Below, one piece after another: positions 3,489 to 59,540 of a stretch of 64,000 bases of DNA; the first letter of the stretch is position 1, and each line of letters starts with the position of its first letter. The position numbers and the translations under genes were made by a program. The stretch is from Verrucomicrobiota bacterium (GTDB lineage: Bacteria > Verrucomicrobiota > Verrucomicrobiia > Limisphaerales > SIBE01): the NCBI GenBank assembly GCA_016871515.1, contig VHDE01000006.1, positions 460-64,459 on the forward strand, given 5' to 3'. The notes under the pieces are model-generated. The model did not search any database. It was not told the DNA's origin and was given only the letters and a program-made list of their open reading frames with translations.

Positions 3489-4700
3489 ATGAGCCCCGAA
3501 AAAAAGAACCTTGAAAGTCTGCGAATCGACCGAAGCAGCCAAGCAAAGAGAAGTCCTTTGATTTGGCTGCTGGCCGTCATCGCGGTGGTCGCGGCCGGCG
3601 TGGCGGCAGTGGGCTGGCAATTGAATCGCCCGAAGCCCGCCACGGTCCGAACCTTCGTGGTTCGCGAGACAACGACAGCGGGGCAGAAGACATTGCTGAA
3701 CGCCTCGGGCTACGTAACCGCACGGCGGGAAGCGACCGTTTCCTCGAAAGTCACTGGAAAGGTCATGGAGATATTGATCGAGGAAGGGATGAAGGTTGCC
3801 GAGAACCAGATTCTGGCGCGACTCGACTCATCAAACACGAAAGCGAATCTTGATTTGGCGCAGGCTCAACAGGCCGCCGCACAAAGCGCAATCCATGAGA
3901 CCAAAGTCCGCTTCGACGAAGCCCACCGTGAGCTCCGGCGAATCACCGACTTGGCCAAAGAGAAAATTGCGACCCAAGCCGATTTAGACCGTGCGGACGC
4001 TGAGGTCAATTCACTCAAGGCGCGCTTGGAGCGCCAGCAAGTTGAGGTATCAGTAGCCGAACGTCAGGTCGCTCTTTGGCAGCAGCAGATGGAGGACGCC
4101 GTGATTCGCGCGCCTTTTGCCGGTGTCGTCACGTCGAAAAACGCGCAGCCAGGCGAAATGATCTCTCCCATCTCCGCGGGCGGCGGGTTCACTCGAACGG
4201 GCATCTGCACGCTCGTCGATATGGATTCCTTGGAAGTCGAGATCGATGTGAGCGAGAGTTACATCAATCGCGTTGAAGCCAATCAGCCCGTCGAGGCGAC
4301 GCTTGATGCGTACGCGGATTGGAAGATTCCCTGCAAAGTCATCGCCATCATCCCGACTGCGGACCGGCAGAAAGCGACTGTGAAAGTGCGAGTCGGTTTC
4401 GAAAAACTCGATCCGCGGATTCTGCCGCAAATGGGTATTAAAGTAGCTTTTCAAGGCTCGAAGGAAGGCGAACCGGCGAAAGGGATCGTAATTCCCAAGG
4501 GGGCCGTTCGCTCGCAGGATGGCCAGGACATCGTCTTTGTCATGCAGAATGGCCGGGTGGAACGCCGCGCCATCACTTTGGGAAGCTCAGGAAGCGCCGA
4601 TGTCACTGTGGCCGCCGGCTTGACCGCCGGGGAGAGAGTGGTGCTGGAGGGGCCAGAGAATCTAACACCAGGCGCCGCTGTGGAGGAAACGAAACAATGA
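3489..4700 (+). CDS. efflux transporter periplasmic adaptor subunit (HlyD/MacA family)
   Basis: Start moved to ATG 3489 (MSPEKKNLESLRIDRS..., then TM LIWLLAVIAVVAAGVAAVGW). Contains a coiled-coil hairpin and beta-barrel regions. Overlaps the downstream ATPase by 4 nt. Confidence 0.85.
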   Translation: MSPEKKNLESLRIDRSSQAKRSPLIWLLAVIAVVAAGVAAVGWQLNRPKPATVRTFVVRETTTAGQKTLLNASGYVTARREATVSSKVTGKVMEILIEEGMKVAENQILARLDSSNTKANLDLAQAQQAAAQSAIHETKVRFDEAHRELRRITDLAKEKIATQADLDRADAEVNSLKARLERQQVEVSVAERQVALWQQQMEDAVIRAPFAGVVTSKNAQPGEMISPISAGGGFTRTGICTLVDMDSLEVEIDVSESYINRVEANQPVEATLDAYADWKIPCKVIAIIPTADRQKATVKVRVGFEKLDPRILPQMGIKVAFQGSKEGEPAKGIVIPKGAVRSQDGQDIVFVMQNGRVERRAITLGSSGSADVTVAAGLTAGERVVLEGPENLTPGAAVEETKQ

Positions 4701-20582: not shown

Positions 20583-20664
20583 CTTTGCGGCAACGCCTCG
20601 CCCAACGCCGTTTCCCGCGCAACTTTTGCCTGACAGGTGTGAAGCAAGTCGTAGAATAATCCGC

Positions 20665-22041
20665 ATGAAACTCCAACGCGATCCCCTGCCCTCTCGTCTT
20701 ATTTCTCTCCCCTCGGCACATTCCACAGGTTTCCGGCCGTCACGCCGCCATTTTCTAAAAAGTGCGGCCGCGCTGGCCGCGGCGTCGACCTTACCCAAGT
20801 GGTTTCTGGAAGAATCCGTCGTAGCAGCGACAAAACCGCTGGCGGCGAACGATCAACCGGCCATTGCTCTGGTCGGTTGCGGCGGAATGGGCCGGGGCGA
20901 CGCCAAGAACGCTTCGCGTTTCGGGAAAGTCGTTGCCCTCTGCGACGTGGATGATGGACAACTAGCCGAGGCCAAGAAACAATGGCCGGACGCCACGACG
21001 TTCAAGGACTTTCGCAAGTTAATGGAACGTGACGATATTCATGTCGTCATCTGCGGAACCGTGGATCATTGGCACACGCTGATCTCGATTGCAGCCATGC
21101 GCGCTGGCAAGGATGTGTACTGTGAAAAGCCGCTGACCTTGACGATTGACGAGGGCAAGCATTTGGTCCGAATCGCCAAGGAAACTAAGCGTGTTCTTCA
21201 GACGGGCAGTCAACAACGCAGCGATAAGAACTTCCGGATGGCCTGCGAATTAGTCCGCAATGGACGCATCGGAAAGTTAAAGCACATTTCCGTATTCCTT
21301 CCGGCAGGCCGCCGCGAGGGACCCTTTTCGAAGGCGCCCGTTCCCGAAGGATTCGATTGGGATATGTGGTTGGGCCAGACGCCAAGGGTCGATTTCGTGA
21401 AGGAACGAGCGCATGTGACGTTTCGTTACTGGTGGGAATATTCCGGCGGGACGATGACGGACTGGGGCGCGCACCATAATGACATCGCGCTCTGGAGTGT
21501 CGGTCTGGAACGAAGCGGCCCGGTCGAAATCGATGGCAAGGCCCTTGCGCAGATGATTCCGGATGGGTTCAGCGCGGTGAGTGAATATGATCTGCGCTAT
21601 ACTTACGCGAACGGCGTGATGCACAGTTGCCAAAGCACCACGGCGGACACGTGGTATGGCGCCATCGCGAAGCAAGACGGCCAGCGGAATGGCGTGAGAT
21701 TCGAAGGAATCGACGGCTGGATTTGGGTGACCCGCGGGAAGATCGAAGCGAGTAATCCGGAGTTTTTGATCCAAGCTTTGCCTTCGACTGCCGAGCGGCT
21801 CTATGTCAGCAACGATCACATGGGCAATTTCTTTGAATGCGTCCGTTCGCGAAAGCAACCGGTCTGCGAAGCGGAAATTGGCCATCGCTCGGCCACCGTT
21901 TGTCACCTGGGCGTGATCGCGATTCGCCTCGGACGAAAACTGAAGTGGGATCCAGCGAAAGAGCTATTCGTTGACGACAAAGAGGCGAACAGCTTTCTGG
22001 CTCGCGAAATGCGCAAGCCATGGAGTTACGAGACGGTTTGA
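20665..22041 (+). CDS. Gfo/Idh/MocA family oxidoreductase with Tat signal
   Basis: Start moved to ATG 20665. Twin-arginine SRRHFLKSAAALAAAST. Rossmann GCGGMGRGD. EKPL motif. Confidence 0.85.
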   Translation: MKLQRDPLPSRLISLPSAHSTGFRPSRRHFLKSAAALAAASTLPKWFLEESVVAATKPLAANDQPAIALVGCGGMGRGDAKNASRFGKVVALCDVDDGQLAEAKKQWPDATTFKDFRKLMERDDIHVVICGTVDHWHTLISIAAMRAGKDVYCEKPLTLTIDEGKHLVRIAKETKRVLQTGSQQRSDKNFRMACELVRNGRIGKLKHISVFLPAGRREGPFSKAPVPEGFDWDMWLGQTPRVDFVKERAHVTFRYWWEYSGGTMTDWGAHHNDIALWSVGLERSGPVEIDGKALAQMIPDGFSAVSEYDLRYTYANGVMHSCQSTTADTWYGAIAKQDGQRNGVRFEGIDGWIWVTRGKIEASNPEFLIQALPSTAERLYVSNDHMGNFFECVRSRKQPVCEAEIGHRSATVCHLGVIAIRLGRKLKWDPAKELFVDDKEANSFLAREMRKPWSYETV

Positions 22042-22068
22042 CGCATTTTCGCGCATTGCGTCTATGCG

Positions 22069-22140
22069 GCAGCACGGGCGTCCCGCCTGTCCTGCTTTTG
22101 GTGTACGCAGATGCTGGACAGGCGAGACGCCTGTCCTACG
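22069..22140. repeat. family A palindromic element
   Basis: ggcgtcccgcctgtcc (22077-22092) versus ggacaggcgagacgcc (22116-22131), with 1 mismatch. It generates a fake N-terminal extension MLDRRDACPT on the next ORF. Confidence 0.65.
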
Positions 22141-23200: not shown

Positions 23201-23283
23201 GCTCTTAATCTTAATCCTAATCCTAATTCCTTTAGTGCAAGCCTCCTTCCGATTAAGAGCAAGATTAGGATTACGGTTAAGAC
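23201..23283. repeat. inverted arrays of 6-nt tandem repeats (family I)
   Basis: gctcttaatcttaatcctaatcctaattcc ... ccgattaagagcaagattaggattacggttaagac. Confidence 0.45.
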
Positions 23284-25976: not shown

Positions 25977-28301
25977 GTGCTGTTGCTCTTTGCGTTCACG
26001 TTGTTTGTCAGCGCTGCGCTGCTGTTCTGGGTCCAGCCGATGGTCGCAAAGATGCTCTTGCCGTTGCTGGGCGGCACGCCAGCCGTCTGGAATACCTGCA
26101 TGGTATTTTTTCAAGGGATGCTGCTGGCTGGATATGCCTACGCGCATCTTCTGACGACGCGCGTCAAACTGAGCGGGCAAGTTCTCATTCATCTTGGAAT
26201 AGTTCTGGTCGCGGCGGTCGTTCTGCCGATTAATATCTCGGAGCGCGCTGTTGTATCGTTGCCCGCAGAATCCGATCCGACGTTCTGGCTTTTAGGCTGC
26301 CTGTTCGTGATCGTGGGGTTGCCATTCTTTGTTGCTTCCGCTAGTGCCCCGTTGCTTCAGAAATGGTTTTCCGAAACTCGCCATGATTCCGCCAGCGATC
26401 CCTATTTTCTGTACGGGGCAAGCAATTTGGGCAGCCTCGGCGCTCTGGTCGGATATCCGTTGTTACTGGAACCTAAATTGCGATTGCAAGAACAGAGCTG
26501 GCTTTGGGCGGCCGGTTACGGAGTGTTTGGAACGCTCAGCTTGCTTTGCGTCTGGATGCGTTACCGGAATGAGGTTGGCAGGACAGGCGTCTCGCCTGTC
26601 TCGGATAGGACAGCGACAAGCGAATCGAGACAGGCGAGACGCCTGTCCTGCCAAGAACGTCTCCGTTGGGTGCTCCTGGCCTTTGTTCCATCGAGCCTGA
26701 TGTTGGGGGCAACGACTTACATTACGACCGATATTGCCAGCATTCCTCTGCTCTGGATTCTGCCGCTGGCCGTGTATTTGATTACGTTCATCGTCGCCTT
26801 TGCAAGGCGGCGGCTGATTTCGGACAGACTCATGAGACGGGCTCTGCCGATTGCTGTCGTTGGATTGATTTACCTTCTTCTTTCAGAAGCAACCGAGCCG
26901 CCTTGGCTCTTGATTCTTTTGCATTTGCTCTTTCTTTTTATCGCCGCACTGGCTTGCCATGGCCAATTGGCGACTGCCCGTCCAACAACGGAACATCTTA
27001 CAGAATTCTTCCTATGGATTTCAGTTGGCGGCGTTCTGGGCGGGATTTTCAATGCGCTGGTTGCCCCCTTTGTTTTTTCGCGTGTGGCAGAATATCCAAT
27101 AGCGGCGTTAATTGCCTGCCTGCTGTGCGGGTCCGAAAGAGGCTCCAAACGTAGAAGCCGAGGTAGCGAGGCTCTAAGTGCGTCCGAGTCTGCCGTCCGG
27201 TTTATCGGACCGCTTGGAGAAGATCAAAGCCTCGTTACCTCGGCTGCTACCTTAGGACACCGCGTGCGCATTTTCGAGCTTCTTCTTCCCTTGGGCGCAG
27301 GTGGATTTGCACTCTTGCTTGCGCATTTGGGAACTCACTTTTCTGGATGGCCTCTGCAAGCACGCCTCGCCATGATCTTTGGTCCTCCCTTGATCTTAAG
27401 CTACGCGATGGTGGACCGTCCGCTGCGGTTCACGCTGGCTCTAGGCGCTGTGATGGCTGCCAGCCTCTTCTATTCCGGAACGCATGGCCGCACTCTCCAT
27501 GCGGAGCGGAATTTCTTCGGCGTCCTGCGCGTGACCTCGGATCCCAACGGGATGTTTCACCGCTTGGTCCATGGCAATACCGTTCATGGACGGCAGTTCG
27601 TCAACGTGTCTCGTCGCTGTGAACCGTTGTCCTATTATCATCGGACCGGGCCGCTCGGCCAACTCTTCGCCATCTTCGACACTCGGACGAACAAATCGAA
27701 CATTGCCGTGATCGGACTCGGAGCCGGATCGATGGCTTCCTACGCGACTCCGCGCCAAACCTGGACATTCTATGAGATCAACCCTGCCGTAATCGCCCTT
27801 GCGAGGAACACCAATTACTTCAGCTTTCTGACAGATTGTCTGTCCGCAAAAGCCGAAATGATCGTGGGTGATGCGCGGCTCAGATTGCGCCATGCAGCCA
27901 ATCAATCGTACGACCTCTTAGTCGTCGATGCCTTCAGCTCCGACGCCATTCCAATGCATTTGATCACGCGCGAGGCACTGGACCTTTACTTGTCAAAGCT
28001 GGCGGACGGCGGGCTGCTGGCTTTTCATATCTCGAACCGCAATTTGAATCTCGAGCCGGTCCTTGGCGCGTTAGCCAAAAATGCGCGGTTGGTCTGTTAC
28101 GCTAACGACGAGAACGAGCCTTCGGTCGAAGAGCAGGCGGATGGCAAGGATCAGTCGCATTGGATCATCATGGCGCGACGCCGCGAAAACCTCGGCAAGC
28201 TGGTCAGAGACTCACGCTGGATACCAGTCTCGGTCGCGAAAGACGCCAAGATTTGGACCGACGATTTCTCCGACATCGTCAGCGTTTTCAAATGGGAGTG
28301 A
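25977..28301 (+). CDS. fused polytopic membrane domain / spermidine-synthase-like methyltransferase-fold protein
   Basis: GTG start, 774 aa. The N-terminal ~480 aa are multi-TM. The C-terminal part has VIGLGAGSMASY ... DLLVVDAFSSDAIPMHL (aminopropyltransferase-like). Confidence 0.8.
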   Translation: MLLLFAFTLFVSAALLFWVQPMVAKMLLPLLGGTPAVWNTCMVFFQGMLLAGYAYAHLLTTRVKLSGQVLIHLGIVLVAAVVLPINISERAVVSLPAESDPTFWLLGCLFVIVGLPFFVASASAPLLQKWFSETRHDSASDPYFLYGASNLGSLGALVGYPLLLEPKLRLQEQSWLWAAGYGVFGTLSLLCVWMRYRNEVGRTGVSPVSDRTATSESRQARRLSCQERLRWVLLAFVPSSLMLGATTYITTDIASIPLLWILPLAVYLITFIVAFARRRLISDRLMRRALPIAVVGLIYLLLSEATEPPWLLILLHLLFLFIAALACHGQLATARPTTEHLTEFFLWISVGGVLGGIFNALVAPFVFSRVAEYPIAALIACLLCGSERGSKRRSRGSEALSASESAVRFIGPLGEDQSLVTSAATLGHRVRIFELLLPLGAGGFALLLAHLGTHFSGWPLQARLAMIFGPPLILSYAMVDRPLRFTLALGAVMAASLFYSGTHGRTLHAERNFFGVLRVTSDPNGMFHRLVHGNTVHGRQFVNVSRRCEPLSYYHRTGPLGQLFAIFDTRTNKSNIAVIGLGAGSMASYATPRQTWTFYEINPAVIALARNTNYFSFLTDCLSAKAEMIVGDARLRLRHAANQSYDLLVVDAFSSDAIPMHLITREALDLYLSKLADGGLLAFHISNRNLNLEPVLGALAKNARLVCYANDENEPSVEEQADGKDQSHWIIMARRRENLGKLVRDSRWIPVSVAKDAKIWTDDFSDIVSVFKWE
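26577..26652. repeat. family A element embedded in-frame in CDS 25977-28301
   Basis: Perfect 27-nt inverted repeats ggcaggacaggcgtctcgcctgtctcg / cgagacaggcgagacgcctgtcctgcc around a 22-nt spacer. Encodes GRTGVSPVSDRTATSESRQARRLSC. Confidence 0.7.
27157..27246. repeat. second inverted repeat inside the same CDS
   Basis: agccgaggtagcgaggct (27157-27174) versus agcctcgttacctcggct (27229-27246): 18-nt arms with 1 mismatch. Spacer is 54 nt. Confidence 0.5.
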
Positions 28302-32359: not shown

Positions 32360-32478
32360 GGGCGCAGGACCGCAGCGTTCACGCTGCGGAAACGTCAGCA
32401 ACTGCGAAACAGTTGAATTACCTGAAGGGACCGTCGGCATTTCCGCAGCGTAAACGCTGCGGTCCCGTCGGACAGTTT
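32360..32478. repeat. family E palindromic element
   Basis: ggaccgcagcgttcacgctgcggaaa (32367-32392) versus tttccgcagcgtaaacgctgcggtcc (32440-32465), with 1 mismatch. A second copy lies at 51821-51946. Confidence 0.65.
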
Positions 32479-34077: not shown

Positions 34078-34152
34078 GTAGGACAGCGCGTCCCGCCTGT
34101 CCTGCTTTTGGTGCAGCAAATGCGGGACAGGCGGGACGCCTCTTGTCCTACG
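34078..34152. repeat. family A palindromic element
   Basis: gtaggacagcgcgtcccgcctgtcctgc ... gggacaggcgggacgcctcttgtcctac. Confidence 0.7.
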
Positions 34153-34227: not shown

Positions 34228-34406
34228 GAAGTTGTCCGCACAATCGTAGCGGCCGGCATCCTGCCTGCCAGTAGAGCCGGGGCATCTTGCCCGGCGGATC
34301 GCGTGTGCGGCCTAACAACGCAAACACCGAGTCTCAAAGGCTGTTCCTCGCGGCAGGATGCGCGCCCTCTACGGCAGGCAGGATGCCCGCCGCTACCGAC
34401 AACTTC
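34228..34406. repeat. family B composite long-hairpin element (about 180 nt)
   Basis: Arms gaagttgtc...cggcatcctgcctgcc...ggcatcttgcccggcgg and cgcggcaggatgcgcg...ggcaggcaggatgcccgccgctaccgacaacttc. Near-identical architecture to 37768-37936. Confidence 0.7.
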
Positions 34407-35510: not shown

Positions 35511-35800
35511 AGGCGATAGGCAATAGCCGGTAGGCAATAGGAAAAGCTTCGAAAGTTTGGTCGTAACGCAGACTTATAGTCTGCCGTAGCGCCGACTTGC
35601 AGTCGGCGCCGGTTTCGCTCTATCGAGCGCGTTGGATCTTTCGGAGCCGACGCGAATCGAAAATCCGCGATACGGCAGAGTGAAACTCTCCGCTACGAGA
35701 ATGGCGCGTTTCGCCTCGCGGTGGGGTAAGGACGCTGCCCCGGTGCAGGTCGCATCAGTTTTTTCTTGCCTATCGCCTATCGCCTATCGCCTATTGCCTG
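35511..35800. repeat. divergent intergenic region bracketed by inverted 7-nt tandem repeats (family G) with family F hairpins inside
   Basis: Left aggcgataggcaatagccggtaggcaatagg. Right cctatcgcctatcgcctatcgcctattgcctg. Inner hairpins gcagacttatagtctgc and gcgccgacttgcagtcggcgc. Confidence 0.55.
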
Positions 35801-36890: not shown

Positions 36891-36978
36891 TCTCCATGAA
36901 CCGGTTGGGAGGGCGGCGTTGCTGCGCCGCCTTGCCTAACCGCGATATCGGCGGCGCAGCAACGCCGCCCTGCCAGCC
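36891..36978. repeat. family D palindromic element
   Basis: Perfect 21-nt inverted repeats gggcggcgttgctgcgccgcc (36911-36931) / ggcggcgcagcaacgccgccc (36950-36970). Preceded by tctccatgaacc. Confidence 0.65.
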
Positions 36979-37719: not shown

Positions 37720-37767
37720 TGGCCTTCACTGGCGGCGGCTACGAGATGCACTCCTTTTAGCCCCTCC

Positions 37768-37936
37768 AAAGTTCTTGGTAGCGGGGGGCATCCTGCCTGC
37801 CGCAGAGGGCGTGCATCTTGCCGCCCGGAGCAACGCTTGAAACGAGGAGGCTGCGTTCTAGTGCGTGCGCGTGATCCGCCGGGCAGGATGCCTTGGCTCT
37901 ACGGCAGGCAGGATGCCCGCCGCTACCGACAACTTC
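37768..37936. repeat. family B composite long-hairpin element, second copy
   Basis: Left arm aaagttcttggtagcggggggcatcctgcctgccgcagagggcgtgcatcttgccgcccgg. This is roughly the reverse complement of the right arm ccgccgggcaggatgccttggctctacggcaggcaggatgcccgccgctaccgacaacttc. Confidence 0.7.
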
Positions 37937-37961
37937 GGGATGGTGCGCAGGTTTCGCTTAT

Positions 37962-51820: not shown

Positions 51821-51946
51821 GTCGGCCGCAGCGCAGCGTTCACGCTGCAGAGCGTGAAATTGCCGAACCGCTCGAAGTTCTTCGGAAGGTTTCGACTCTG
51901 CGTACGTTTCTGCAGCGTAAACGCTGCGCTCCCGACCGACAGTTTT
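51821..51946. repeat. family E palindromic element, second copy
   Basis: gcgcagcgttcacgctgcaga (51831-51851) versus tctgcagcgtaaacgctgcgc (51909-51929). Shares the ...cgacagttt tail with the copy at 32360-32478. Confidence 0.65.
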
Positions 51947-53011: not shown

Positions 53012-53045
53012 TTGACGCTGAGAACGGCGCGACGGGTAGGACAGC

Positions 53046-53116
53046 GCGTCCCGCCTGTCCTGAAACACACTGATCGTTCGAGGACAGGCGGGACGCGCTG
53101 TCCTACGTCATCTGAC
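53046..53116. repeat. family A palindromic element (possible mdh terminator)
   Basis: Perfect 26-nt inverted repeats gtaggacagcgcgtcccgcctgtcct / aggacaggcgggacgcgctgtcctac with a 19-nt spacer. Lies 35 nt after the mdh stop. Confidence 0.7.
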
Positions 53117-54941: not shown

Positions 54942-55781
54942 ATGTTGAGCTCTCGACCCAGACGAGTTGGCAGCCTTCCCAGGAAGACCGCTCGCGAACC
55001 ACGTCCAAGGGGTTTCACTTTGATCGAACTGCTCGTCGTAATTGCCATCATCGCGATTTTGGCCTCGTTACTCATGACGGCGCTGGTCCAAGCGAAGTCG
55101 AATGCGCGTTCGATTAAGTGCACGAGCAATCTTCGCCAGATCGGCCTAGCCCTTCAGCTCTATGTCATCGATAATGGTTTCTACCCATTGATTGGAACCG
55201 CCTTTAATCCATCGAAACCACAGGGCGCAAAGTGGTACGACGATCTCCACGCCTATATGGTCCAACGCTGGACCAACGATATTTATGTTTGCCCAGGTTA
55301 CAAAGGTGAAGTGGAAGATGGGCGCGTCAAAACGAACGTCATTTACGCGTCAGTCGGAAGCTATGGGTACAATGTCGGCAGCGCTGATAAGGTCGGGCGG
55401 CTGCAATTTGGACTCGCCGGCAGGTTTATCGGCCCCGGCGAAATTACGCAGATTCCTACAGCTGAAAATGAAGTCAAAGTGCCGAGCGATATGATCGTGG
55501 TCGGCGATTCGTTTTCGACTTTGTCGCAGAAAAACGGAACGCTGTTGGTGGGACTCGAAATGTTAAGCCGTCAGCTTTACCCCGAGCTTGATCCGGGCGA
55601 TGATGGCGAAGGTCCCGGCACCAAAGAAGCCAAAGCGCGGCACAGGAAAAAGATGAATGTTGTGTTTGGCGACGCGCATGTCGAGTCACACAATTACTCG
55701 AAAATCCTTTTGGACCTAAATCCACAGGTGCTCAAACGCTGGCATTCCGACAACGAGCCGCACCTCGACTTTTTCGAGTGA
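54942..55781 (+). CDS. prepilin-type N-terminal cleavage/methylation domain protein (DUF1559-like pseudopilin)
   Basis: [23 protein letters not shown]-terminal [12 protein letters not shown] (H-X9-DG-like region). Confidence 0.8.
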
Positions 55782-55782
55782 C

Positions 55783-55810
55783 GGCAGGATAGGCGTCCCG
55801 CCTGTCCTGC
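55783..55810. repeat. family A half element
   Basis: ggcaggataggcgtcccgcctgtcctgc, immediately after the stop at 55781. Confidence 0.5.
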
Positions 55811-58039: not shown

Positions 58040-58077
58040 TTCTAACCGTGACTGCGCAATCAAAGTTGTCCCGGGTC

Positions 58078-58160
58078 GCAGGACAGGCGCCTCGCCTGTC
58101 CGCAGCGAATAGCCCGCGGCCGCTGATTGCAACCGGACTGGCAAGGCCCCTGTCCTACCG
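58078..58160. repeat. family A degenerate copy
   Basis: gcaggacaggcgcctcgcctgtccgc ... caaggcccctgtcctaccg. Confidence 0.45.
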
Positions 58161-59469: not shown

Positions 59470-59495
59470 GGTAGGACGGGCGTCTCGCCTGTCCT
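59470..59495. repeat. family A half element
   Basis: ggtaggacgggcgtctcgcctgtcct. Confidence 0.45.
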
Positions 59496-59540
59496 CTTTC
59501 CAAGCCCTGCGCTGCCCTGCCGAAATGAATGTGCGCGGGG

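Follow-up and report, generated by a model that had tools for sequence, protein, structure and literature searches.

A dimer of inverted GTAG-type REPs in the reading frame of a fused MFS/spermidine-synthase gene of an uncultured Verrucomicrobiota bacterium

A palindromic repeat in an open reading frame

To which class of repeats does a perfect palindrome belong when most of its copies lie between genes and one lies in frame within an intact membrane-protein gene, and how did that copy come to be there? The question is raised by a 64,000-nucleotide (nt) stretch of DNA from a Verrucomicrobiota bacterium (assembly GCA_016871515.1, contig VHDE01000006.1, positions 460 to 64,459), hereafter the window. 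In the window, the open reading frame (ORF) at 25977-28301 on the forward strand carries an 80-nt inverted repeat at 26575-26654, referred to here as element 1. The ORF encodes a 774-residue protein with a membrane domain like those of the major facilitator superfamily (MFS) fused to a spermidine-synthase-like domain, and it is intact across both element 1 and a second palindrome, element 2 (27144-27257), according to the ORF list, NCBIfam, homologs and an AlphaFold2 model. We find that element 1 is a dimer of inverted repetitive extragenic palindromes (REPs) of the GTAG type, with the architecture of a REPIN (REP doublet forming hairpin). In our view it is probably a dimer of the kind associated with REP-associated tyrosine transposases (RAYTs), lodged in a permissive, disordered loop and translated there as a neutral or nearly neutral passenger rather than as an adaptation.

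Element 1 is a tail-to-tail REP dimer

The inverted-repeat search delimits two 29-nt arms, 100% complementary to each other, around a 22-nt spacer. The initial annotation had described a 76-nt unit with 27-nt arms at 26577-26652; its perfect palindrome and its 22-nt spacer are present, but the repeat is slightly larger than was proposed. The left arm (26575-26603, forward strand) reads TTG-GCAG-GACAGGCG-TCT-CGCCTGTC-TCG, i.e. a GCAG head followed by an 8-bp stem and a 3-nt loop, and the right arm (26626-26654, reverse strand), which encodes SRQARRLSCQ, is its exact reverse complement. Each arm is a small tagged palindrome in its own right, G-GCAG-GACAGGCG-TCT-CGCCTGTC, and the complementarity between the arms runs beyond head plus stem-loop for three nt inward (TCG/CGA) and three nt outward (TTG/CAA).

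GTAG-tagged REPs are defined by a G+C-rich stem of 6-13 bp, a loop of 2-3 nt, and GTAG or the degenerate GYAG or GTRG at one end of the stem, with the heads of some families having degenerated to GYAG (PMC3733652). Both arms of element 1 have an 8-bp stem and 3-nt loop within these bounds. Their heads are both GCAG, which is the described GYAG variant, and GTAG itself is found in several copies elsewhere in the window. Because the arms are GYAG-tagged stem-loops with the oriented head signature of GTAG-tagged REPs, element 1, to which no strand is assigned, is a tail-to-tail (heads-out) dimer. Two inverted REPs, a short spacer and one long hairpin, the features of a REPIN, are found in element 1 and again in element 2. 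Folding of the mRNA segment, as the initial annotation had proposed, gives a single hairpin with a perfect 29-bp stem (-69.4 kcal/mol, z = -10.3).

The spacer (26604-26625, forward strand, read from the sequence) is GATAGGACAGCGACAAGCGAAT. It includes TAGGACAGCG, which is the head and the start of the stem of the copies at 34078 and 53036 without any difference, and may be the remnant of a nested third REP.

As first annotated, the palindrome sits at a codon boundary, position 26577 being the first position of codon 201, and the 774-codon frame is open throughout. Element 1 covers residues 200-226, of which residues 201-225 read GRTGVSPVSDRTATSESRQARRLSC. The frame in use across the palindrome contains no stop codon, and Gly, Ser, Thr, Pro and Arg abound in the peptide. 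The length of the element is not divisible by three, whether it is counted as 76 or 80 nt.

An intrinsic (Rho-independent) terminator was considered as an identity for element 1 and rejected, as the hairpin is followed by GAACGTCTCC and there is no T-run; no terminator-like site is called at element 1 or element 2. No Rfam 15 family is matched at its gathering score, and microRNA-precursor models reach 23-34 bits where 58-100 are required, as generic matches to a long hairpin.

The repeat family within the window

The element 1 arm has seven matches in the window with up to 3 mismatches (0.00 expected) and its 21-nt core has nine (0.03 expected), so that membership of a family with copies at six intergenic sites, as originally listed, is upheld, with the copy placed at 53046 now delimited as 53036-53106. 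Four of the six intergenic loci have the dimer form. Three of these are heads-out dimers: one at 22065-22140, 23 nt past the stop codon of ORF 20626-22041 and with GTAG at 22140 on the reverse strand; one at 34078-34150, with GTAG heads, between convergent genes; and one at 53036-53106, with GTAG heads at 53036 and 53106 and arms that are 94% complementary, 24 nt past a stop codon. The fourth, at 58077-58160, is a degenerate heads-out dimer. Single REPs are found on the forward strand at 55783-55810, with a GCAG head, 1 nt past the stop codon of ORF 54942-55781, and at 59470-59497, with a GTAG head. At five of the six intergenic loci the repeat starts 1-37 nt past a stop codon, and the family is, like GTAG-tagged REPs in general, multi-copy, mostly intergenic and situated just downstream of ORFs (six loci in 64 kb).

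The G that precedes the head of element 1, and its tail bases, are also present in other copies in the window. The spacers of the five dimers differ, with CTGCTTTTGGTG common only to the copies at 22065 and 34078. The arms of the intergenic dimers are 80-94% complementary, compared with 100% in element 1.

Element 1 stands where homologs have native loop sequence

The host protein matches the NCBIfam fused MFS/spermidine synthase model NF037959 (E 7e-16) and has thousands of full-length homologs, the best named ones coming from Pedosphaera-like Verrucomicrobiota, with homology extending over the full length on either side of the elements. Residues that are invariant in the family are all kept. 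In an alignment with 26 homologs, element 1 falls between two invariant positions, C191 and R228/W231, and no sequence shows conservation there. The alignment and the AlphaFold2 model agree with the initial annotation in placing it in a loop just ahead of a conserved block, RLRW...PSSLMLG.

The AlphaFold2 model, which was built on the alignment, has a mean predicted local distance difference test (pLDDT) score of 85.3 and a predicted template modelling (pTM) score of 0.86. Its pLDDT falls below 50 only at residues 205-218 and 393-425, which correspond to the two elements and sit between helices 170-202 and 225-253 and between helices 372-389 and 428-452, respectively. Both elements are therefore predicted by the model to encode disordered inter-helix loops, loop 1 and loop 2.

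It had been suggested that residues ~201-226 might prove to be an insertion absent from orthologs. This is not what the comparison reveals, as an unconserved loop of comparable length is present at this position in each of the 119 orthologs: loop 1 is 39 residues long in the window protein and 29-120 residues in the homologs, with a median of 41. Without the 26-27 element-encoded residues it would be only ~13 residues long, below every homolog. In addition, the right arm codes for L223 and S224, which fall on a semi-conserved [LIV][ST] pair that is present in 72% and 64% of homologs, respectively. By these alignments, element 1 is not a net insertion, and it sits in place of native loop sequence. 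Since loop 1 matches its orthologs in length, element 1 would either have replaced loop sequence or have been inserted with a matching deletion.

The same gene with an identical element 1 is found in two JGI samples, and over 30 contigs, drawn from NCBI, ENA, Logan and JGI, encode the identical protein, with only 1-2 single-nucleotide polymorphisms (SNPs) between population samples. A search of the near-identical proteins finds no empty-site allele: every full-length member of the 90% cluster has 774 residues and carries element 1. The next relatives beyond the 100% cluster are just 63-64% identical. In two such orthologs (on stretches L003 and L004) loop 1 lacks any inverted repeat of at least 16 nt, and their contigs have no match to the strict REP core, which is uninformative on ancestry.

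A second dimer, of a different family, in the same gene

Element 2, which the initial annotation missed, is an in-frame inverted dimer of a different family, bounded by GTAG...CTAC and covering residues 390-427 (no strand assigned). Its 30-nt arms, at 27144-27173 and 27228-27257, are 87% complementary, with the GTAG and CTAC ends at 27151 and 27250; read from GTAG, they are GTAGAAGCCGAGGTAGCGAGGCT and GTAGCAGCCGAGGTAACGAGGCT. Its RNA forms a structure of -68 kcal/mol (z = -7.1). The window holds no other copy of its family, and its arm matches at least 120 stretches in a scan of metagenomes. The layout of the family is GTAGCAGCCGAGGTAACGAGGCTC, a variable spacer, and then GAGCCTC-CTCACG-TCGGCTGCTAC.

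Element 2 is a true insertion, as loop 2 has 52 residues in the window protein, compared with a modal length of 18 (50 of 119 homologs); by this comparison it is a clean insertion of ~34 codons. It is open in only one of six frames, which is the frame used by the host gene.

Palindromic inserts in homologs and in other proteins

Loop 2 is long in about 30% of the 119 homologs and loop 1 in some, many of them with peptide motifs typical of other palindromic repeats. In P0004 (palindromic inserts at L243:3639-3724 and 3818-3868), loop 1 holds a dimer of another family with GTAG heads; in P0009 (inserts at L244:3644-3702 and 4340-4479), loop 2 holds an inverted repeat with 40-nt arms and loop 1 a smaller one; and in P0002 (L003:1499-1525), loop 2 holds a 13-nt palindrome that is perfect. 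A by-product of this work is thus the finding that two loops of the fused MFS/spermidine-synthase family gather unrelated palindromic inserts across many lineages.

The core of element 1 is also carried in frame by unrelated proteins of other genomes. There are 44 overlaps of the core with long ORFs, many of which reflect native coding sequence (ThiC, L082) or frames that are spurious in DNA rich in G+C, and only those verified by Pfam are used here. Hosts confirmed in this way are a protein kinase (L090), an AcrB transporter (L076), a fucosidase (L060), an S9 peptidase in two species (L093 and L023), an alpha-2-macroglobulin with two separate in-frame REP dimers (L104:2-3382) and the repair helicase Mfd/TRCF with one in-frame copy (L034:3558-6380). 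The Mfd case recalls the published observation that intragenic REPs are in excess in genes for DNA repair. Across hosts the core is read in all three frames, as TGVSPV, GQASRLS and DRRDACP. These peptides, together with SLLTSAAT, are signatures of repeat-derived segments, which should be masked in homology and structure work.

The core in other genomes and its association with RAYT genes

Scanning one genome per species with the pattern GGACAGGCGNNNCGCCTGTCC identified the core in at least 117 genome stretches (L006-L122) from Verrucomicrobiota, Acidobacteriota, Planctomycetota, Nitrospirota, Omnitrophota, the cyanobacteria Oscillatoria and Cylindrospermum, and others. In most of the 138 matches listed, GT[AG]G abuts the stem on its 5' side and keeps a fixed orientation to the loop, which is TCY on the head strand. 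The usual description of REPIN/RAYT systems is that they are specific to lineages and inherited vertically, and against this picture the breadth of phyla sharing a nearly identical 21-nt REP core stands out. This second by-product, a near-identical core with a GT[AG]G head over several phyla, is relevant to REP/RAYT biology and to the annotation of Acidobacteria and of the Planctomycetes-Verrucomicrobia-Chlamydiae (PVC) group.

No RAYT gene is found in the 64-kb window by tblastn with nine RAYT/TIRYT queries. In other genomes, both families adjoin RAYT-like genes. Cylindrospermum NIES-4074 (L006) has a Y1_Tnp ORF (PF01797, E 2.8e-7) with GTAGGACAGGCGAGACGCCTGTCC 12 nt past its stop codon. In L200 (5107-5788), a homolog of RAYT that is 46% identical to RB11751 of Rhodopirellula baltica (E 8e-48) is bracketed by arms of the element 2 type; this ORF has no Pfam match at 1e-5, and its assignment as RAYT rests on the identity to RB11751. 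By analogy with these genomes, in which the link to RAYT is seen, element 1 may also owe its mobility in the present genome to a RAYT.

Two further observations concern these loci. The arrangement in L200, with the RAYT homolog between REP arms, is what is called a REPtron. The Y1_Tnp ORF of L006 (3659-4228) itself holds an in-frame REP-like copy, GTGAACAGGCGAGACGCCTGTTCTAC, which is read VNRRDACST and lies just past the HUH motif.

Origin of the in-frame dimer

REP dimers, as non-autonomous elements, are believed to depend for their spread on a RAYT supplied in trans, a Y1/HUH tyrosine transposase working on the single-stranded hairpin beside the GTAG tag. In the scenario that we favour, a copy of such a dimer would have reached the DNA encoding the disordered inter-helix loop of the fused MFS/spermidine-synthase protein. 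The gene would have stayed intact because the frame in use has no stop codon and the loop tolerates change, and element 1 would then have been read as loop sequence. As the loop is no longer than in orthologs, some 26 older codons would have been overwritten, whether by insertion plus deletion, by conversion of an older insert or by template switching. A second dimer, of the other GTAG family, would have inserted cleanly into the next permissive loop. Thus, palindromes known as "extragenic" can turn into protein-coding loop sequence, and one gene can take up two of them from different families.

Several points weigh against this scenario. A RAYT gene is missing from the window. Both arms of element 1 are headed by GCAG rather than the canonical GTAG, and a copy with such heads may have lost the capacity to be mobilised. 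Simple transposition does not account for an element that leaves the net length unchanged, and a size of 80 nt, not divisible by three, calls for an additional indel. Its arms are perfect where those of the intergenic copies are not, which could reflect either a very recent event or active maintenance. Finally, it is the intact frame that suggests translation through a hairpin of -69 kcal/mol, and the passenger status of the peptide is likewise put forward here as what we infer.

Some of these points would be accommodated by a local origin, in which one REP or quasi-palindrome already in the loop was copied in inverted orientation over the neighbouring codons, by template switching or hairpin-templated repair. 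The 29/29 complementarity of the arms compared with 80-94% in intergenic dimers, the unchanged length of the loop, the complementarity that continues 3 nt past the unit both inward and outward, and the position of the right arm at native semi-conserved residues of the orthologs are all consistent with such copying. However, heads-out dimers with spacers of 7-50 nt are the normal form of the family, at four of six intergenic loci and also in other genomes, so that it is simpler to assume a source that was already a dimer. Other copies, moreover, have the same G in front of the head and the same tail bases, and no intermediate allele is found among the near-identical proteins. We consider a local origin unlikely, although it is the strongest of the rivals to the arrival of a REP dimer in the loop.

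Selection for the structure itself is less probable still. The hairpins might be kept for gene regulation, as sites of ribosome pausing between transmembrane segments, of processing or stabilisation involving RNase III/E, or of binding by gyrase or integration host factor (IHF), and some REPs of E. coli do bind gyrase or IHF. The two hairpins have very high stability (element 1, -69.4 kcal/mol, z -10.3; element 2, -68 kcal/mol, z -7.1), both are placed at inter-helix loops of a polytopic membrane domain, and the arms of element 1 are perfect despite their coding context; RNA-level roles of REP dimers have also been raised by Di Nocera et al. (PMC3733652). Nevertheless, the loops of orthologs hold no insert or unrelated ones, both families are scattered over many unrelated genes and intergenic sites, and the hairpins have neither an above-threshold match in Rfam nor a terminator-like tail. 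We give a comparably small chance to a broader proposal, suggested by the length-neutral and perfectly symmetrical state of element 1, that REP dimers overwrite existing sequence in a so far undescribed mode, by template switching or gene conversion onto a prior hairpin, with the two loops of this protein family as recurrent targets, more than tolerant sites, and hairpins that are possibly useful. If this were true, hairpins in loops could be of use to the mRNA or to co-translational membrane insertion.

It is very improbable that the palindromes have inactivated the host gene, leaving a recent pseudogene or separate pieces. One mRNA does contain two strong hairpins, and 1-2 SNPs between samples are too few to measure purifying selection. 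However, the frame is kept through both elements, including element 2 with its single open frame among six, the family-invariant residues are retained, and the model is confident outside the two loops. Similarly decorated genes are common and include genes of the essential type (PMC3733652). A palindromic chimera produced by the metagenome assembler, a known kind of assembly error, has next to no probability, given that the protein, and the DNA where compared, is identical in separate JGI samples, the NCBI metagenome-assembled genome (MAG), ENA and Logan, on over 30 contigs, and that element 1 belongs to a genuine multi-copy family.

Other palindromic repeats in the window

Further families of inverted dimers lie in the intergenic spacers of the window, at 32367-32465 and 51830-51930, and at 34246-34396, 35561-35698, 36903-36978 and 37766-37938; these include two loci with GCAGCGTTCACGCTGC dimers and one GTAGCGGCCGGCATCCTGCCTGCC dimer that has a GTAG head. 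Multiple REP-like families appear to be hosted by this genome. A short AT-rich repeat of the TCTTAATC/CTAATC type forms an imperfect inverted repeat between two genes at 23203-23282.

Comparison with known systems

The in-frame position had led the initial annotation to an analogy with Rickettsia palindromic elements (RPEs; Ogata et al. 2000, cited in PMC3733652), which is apt as far as behaviour is concerned. RPEs are likewise in-frame palindromes in functional ORFs that give rise to surface or loop peptides, and RPE-4 and RPE-6 have themselves been equated with CGTC REPs (PMC3733652). Element 1 has no sequence relationship to the RPEs, of which RPE-1 is longer and Rickettsia-specific while RPE-4 and RPE-6 are CGTC-tagged. 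It is not assigned to the RPEs, its tag being G[T/C]AG rather than CGTC and its host belonging to Verrucomicrobiota. Element 1 thus behaves like an RPE without being one.

MITEs (miniature transposable elements with inverted repeats) found in frame, such as ERIC, Nezha and the MITEs of Coxiella (PMC5896051, PMC3184786), are also small non-autonomous hairpin repeats that can be read through as parts of genes. They differ in having terminal inverted repeats derived from insertion sequences, together with target-site duplications. Element 1 is rejected as a MITE, since its flanks, GAGGTT on the left and AAGAAC on the right, contain no direct repeat that would mark a target-site duplication, and its arms are REP stem-loops.

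With the REPIN/RAYT systems (Bertels and Rainey 2011, PMC3116915; Nunvar 2010, PMC2817692; Ton-Hoang 2012, PMC3333891) element 1 shares the inverted REPs and spacer, the long hairpin, the multi-copy nature and, in the genomes of L006 and L200, the proximity of both families to RAYT-like genes; GTAG-tagged REPs are the class that is associated with the RAYT tyrosine transposases (PMC2817692, PMC3333891, PMC3733652). It differs in that REPINs are described as extragenic, whereas here one is intragenic, the window has no RAYT, spacers are not conserved between copies and the head is GCAG.

The closest parallel is in the same phylum. Di Nocera, De Gregorio and Rocco (2013, BMC Genomics 14:522, PMC3733652) defined the GTAG and CGTC superfamilies of REPs and devoted a section to intragenic REPs, which means that the behaviour, of which the initial annotation knew no description for this class of repeat, has been catalogued since 2013. 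Intragenic GTAG REPs were most numerous in the verrucomicrobium Opitutus terrae, where they are mostly dimers encoding 20-30 residues and some ORFs are hit twice (PMC3733652). The inserts listed for O. terrae in their Additional file 3 include GTGVSPV, GTGVPPV, TGGTPVP and dimers, for example GTGVPPVMADQPHGRDARAT; one of the hosts is a protein named for "acriflavin resistance" (PMC3733652). The similarities to the present case comprise the phylum, the GTAG/GYAG head, the class of stem-loop (stem of 6-9 bp, loop of 2-3 nt), the dimers of 20-30 residues within proteins, the ORFs hit twice, and intergenic copies just downstream of ORFs. The O. terrae peptides GTGVSPV and TGGTPVP are, in addition, of the same type as GRTGVSPV here. 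The organism differs, being an uncultured MAG, as does the host gene, and a dimer that is length-neutral relative to orthologs is a feature of this locus that is not discussed in PMC3733652. REP dimers within genes are thus already described for this class of repeat and for this phylum, and element 1 is an ordinary further example, which adds an uncultured lineage to the existing catalogue; the two by-products noted above likewise leave current understanding unchanged.

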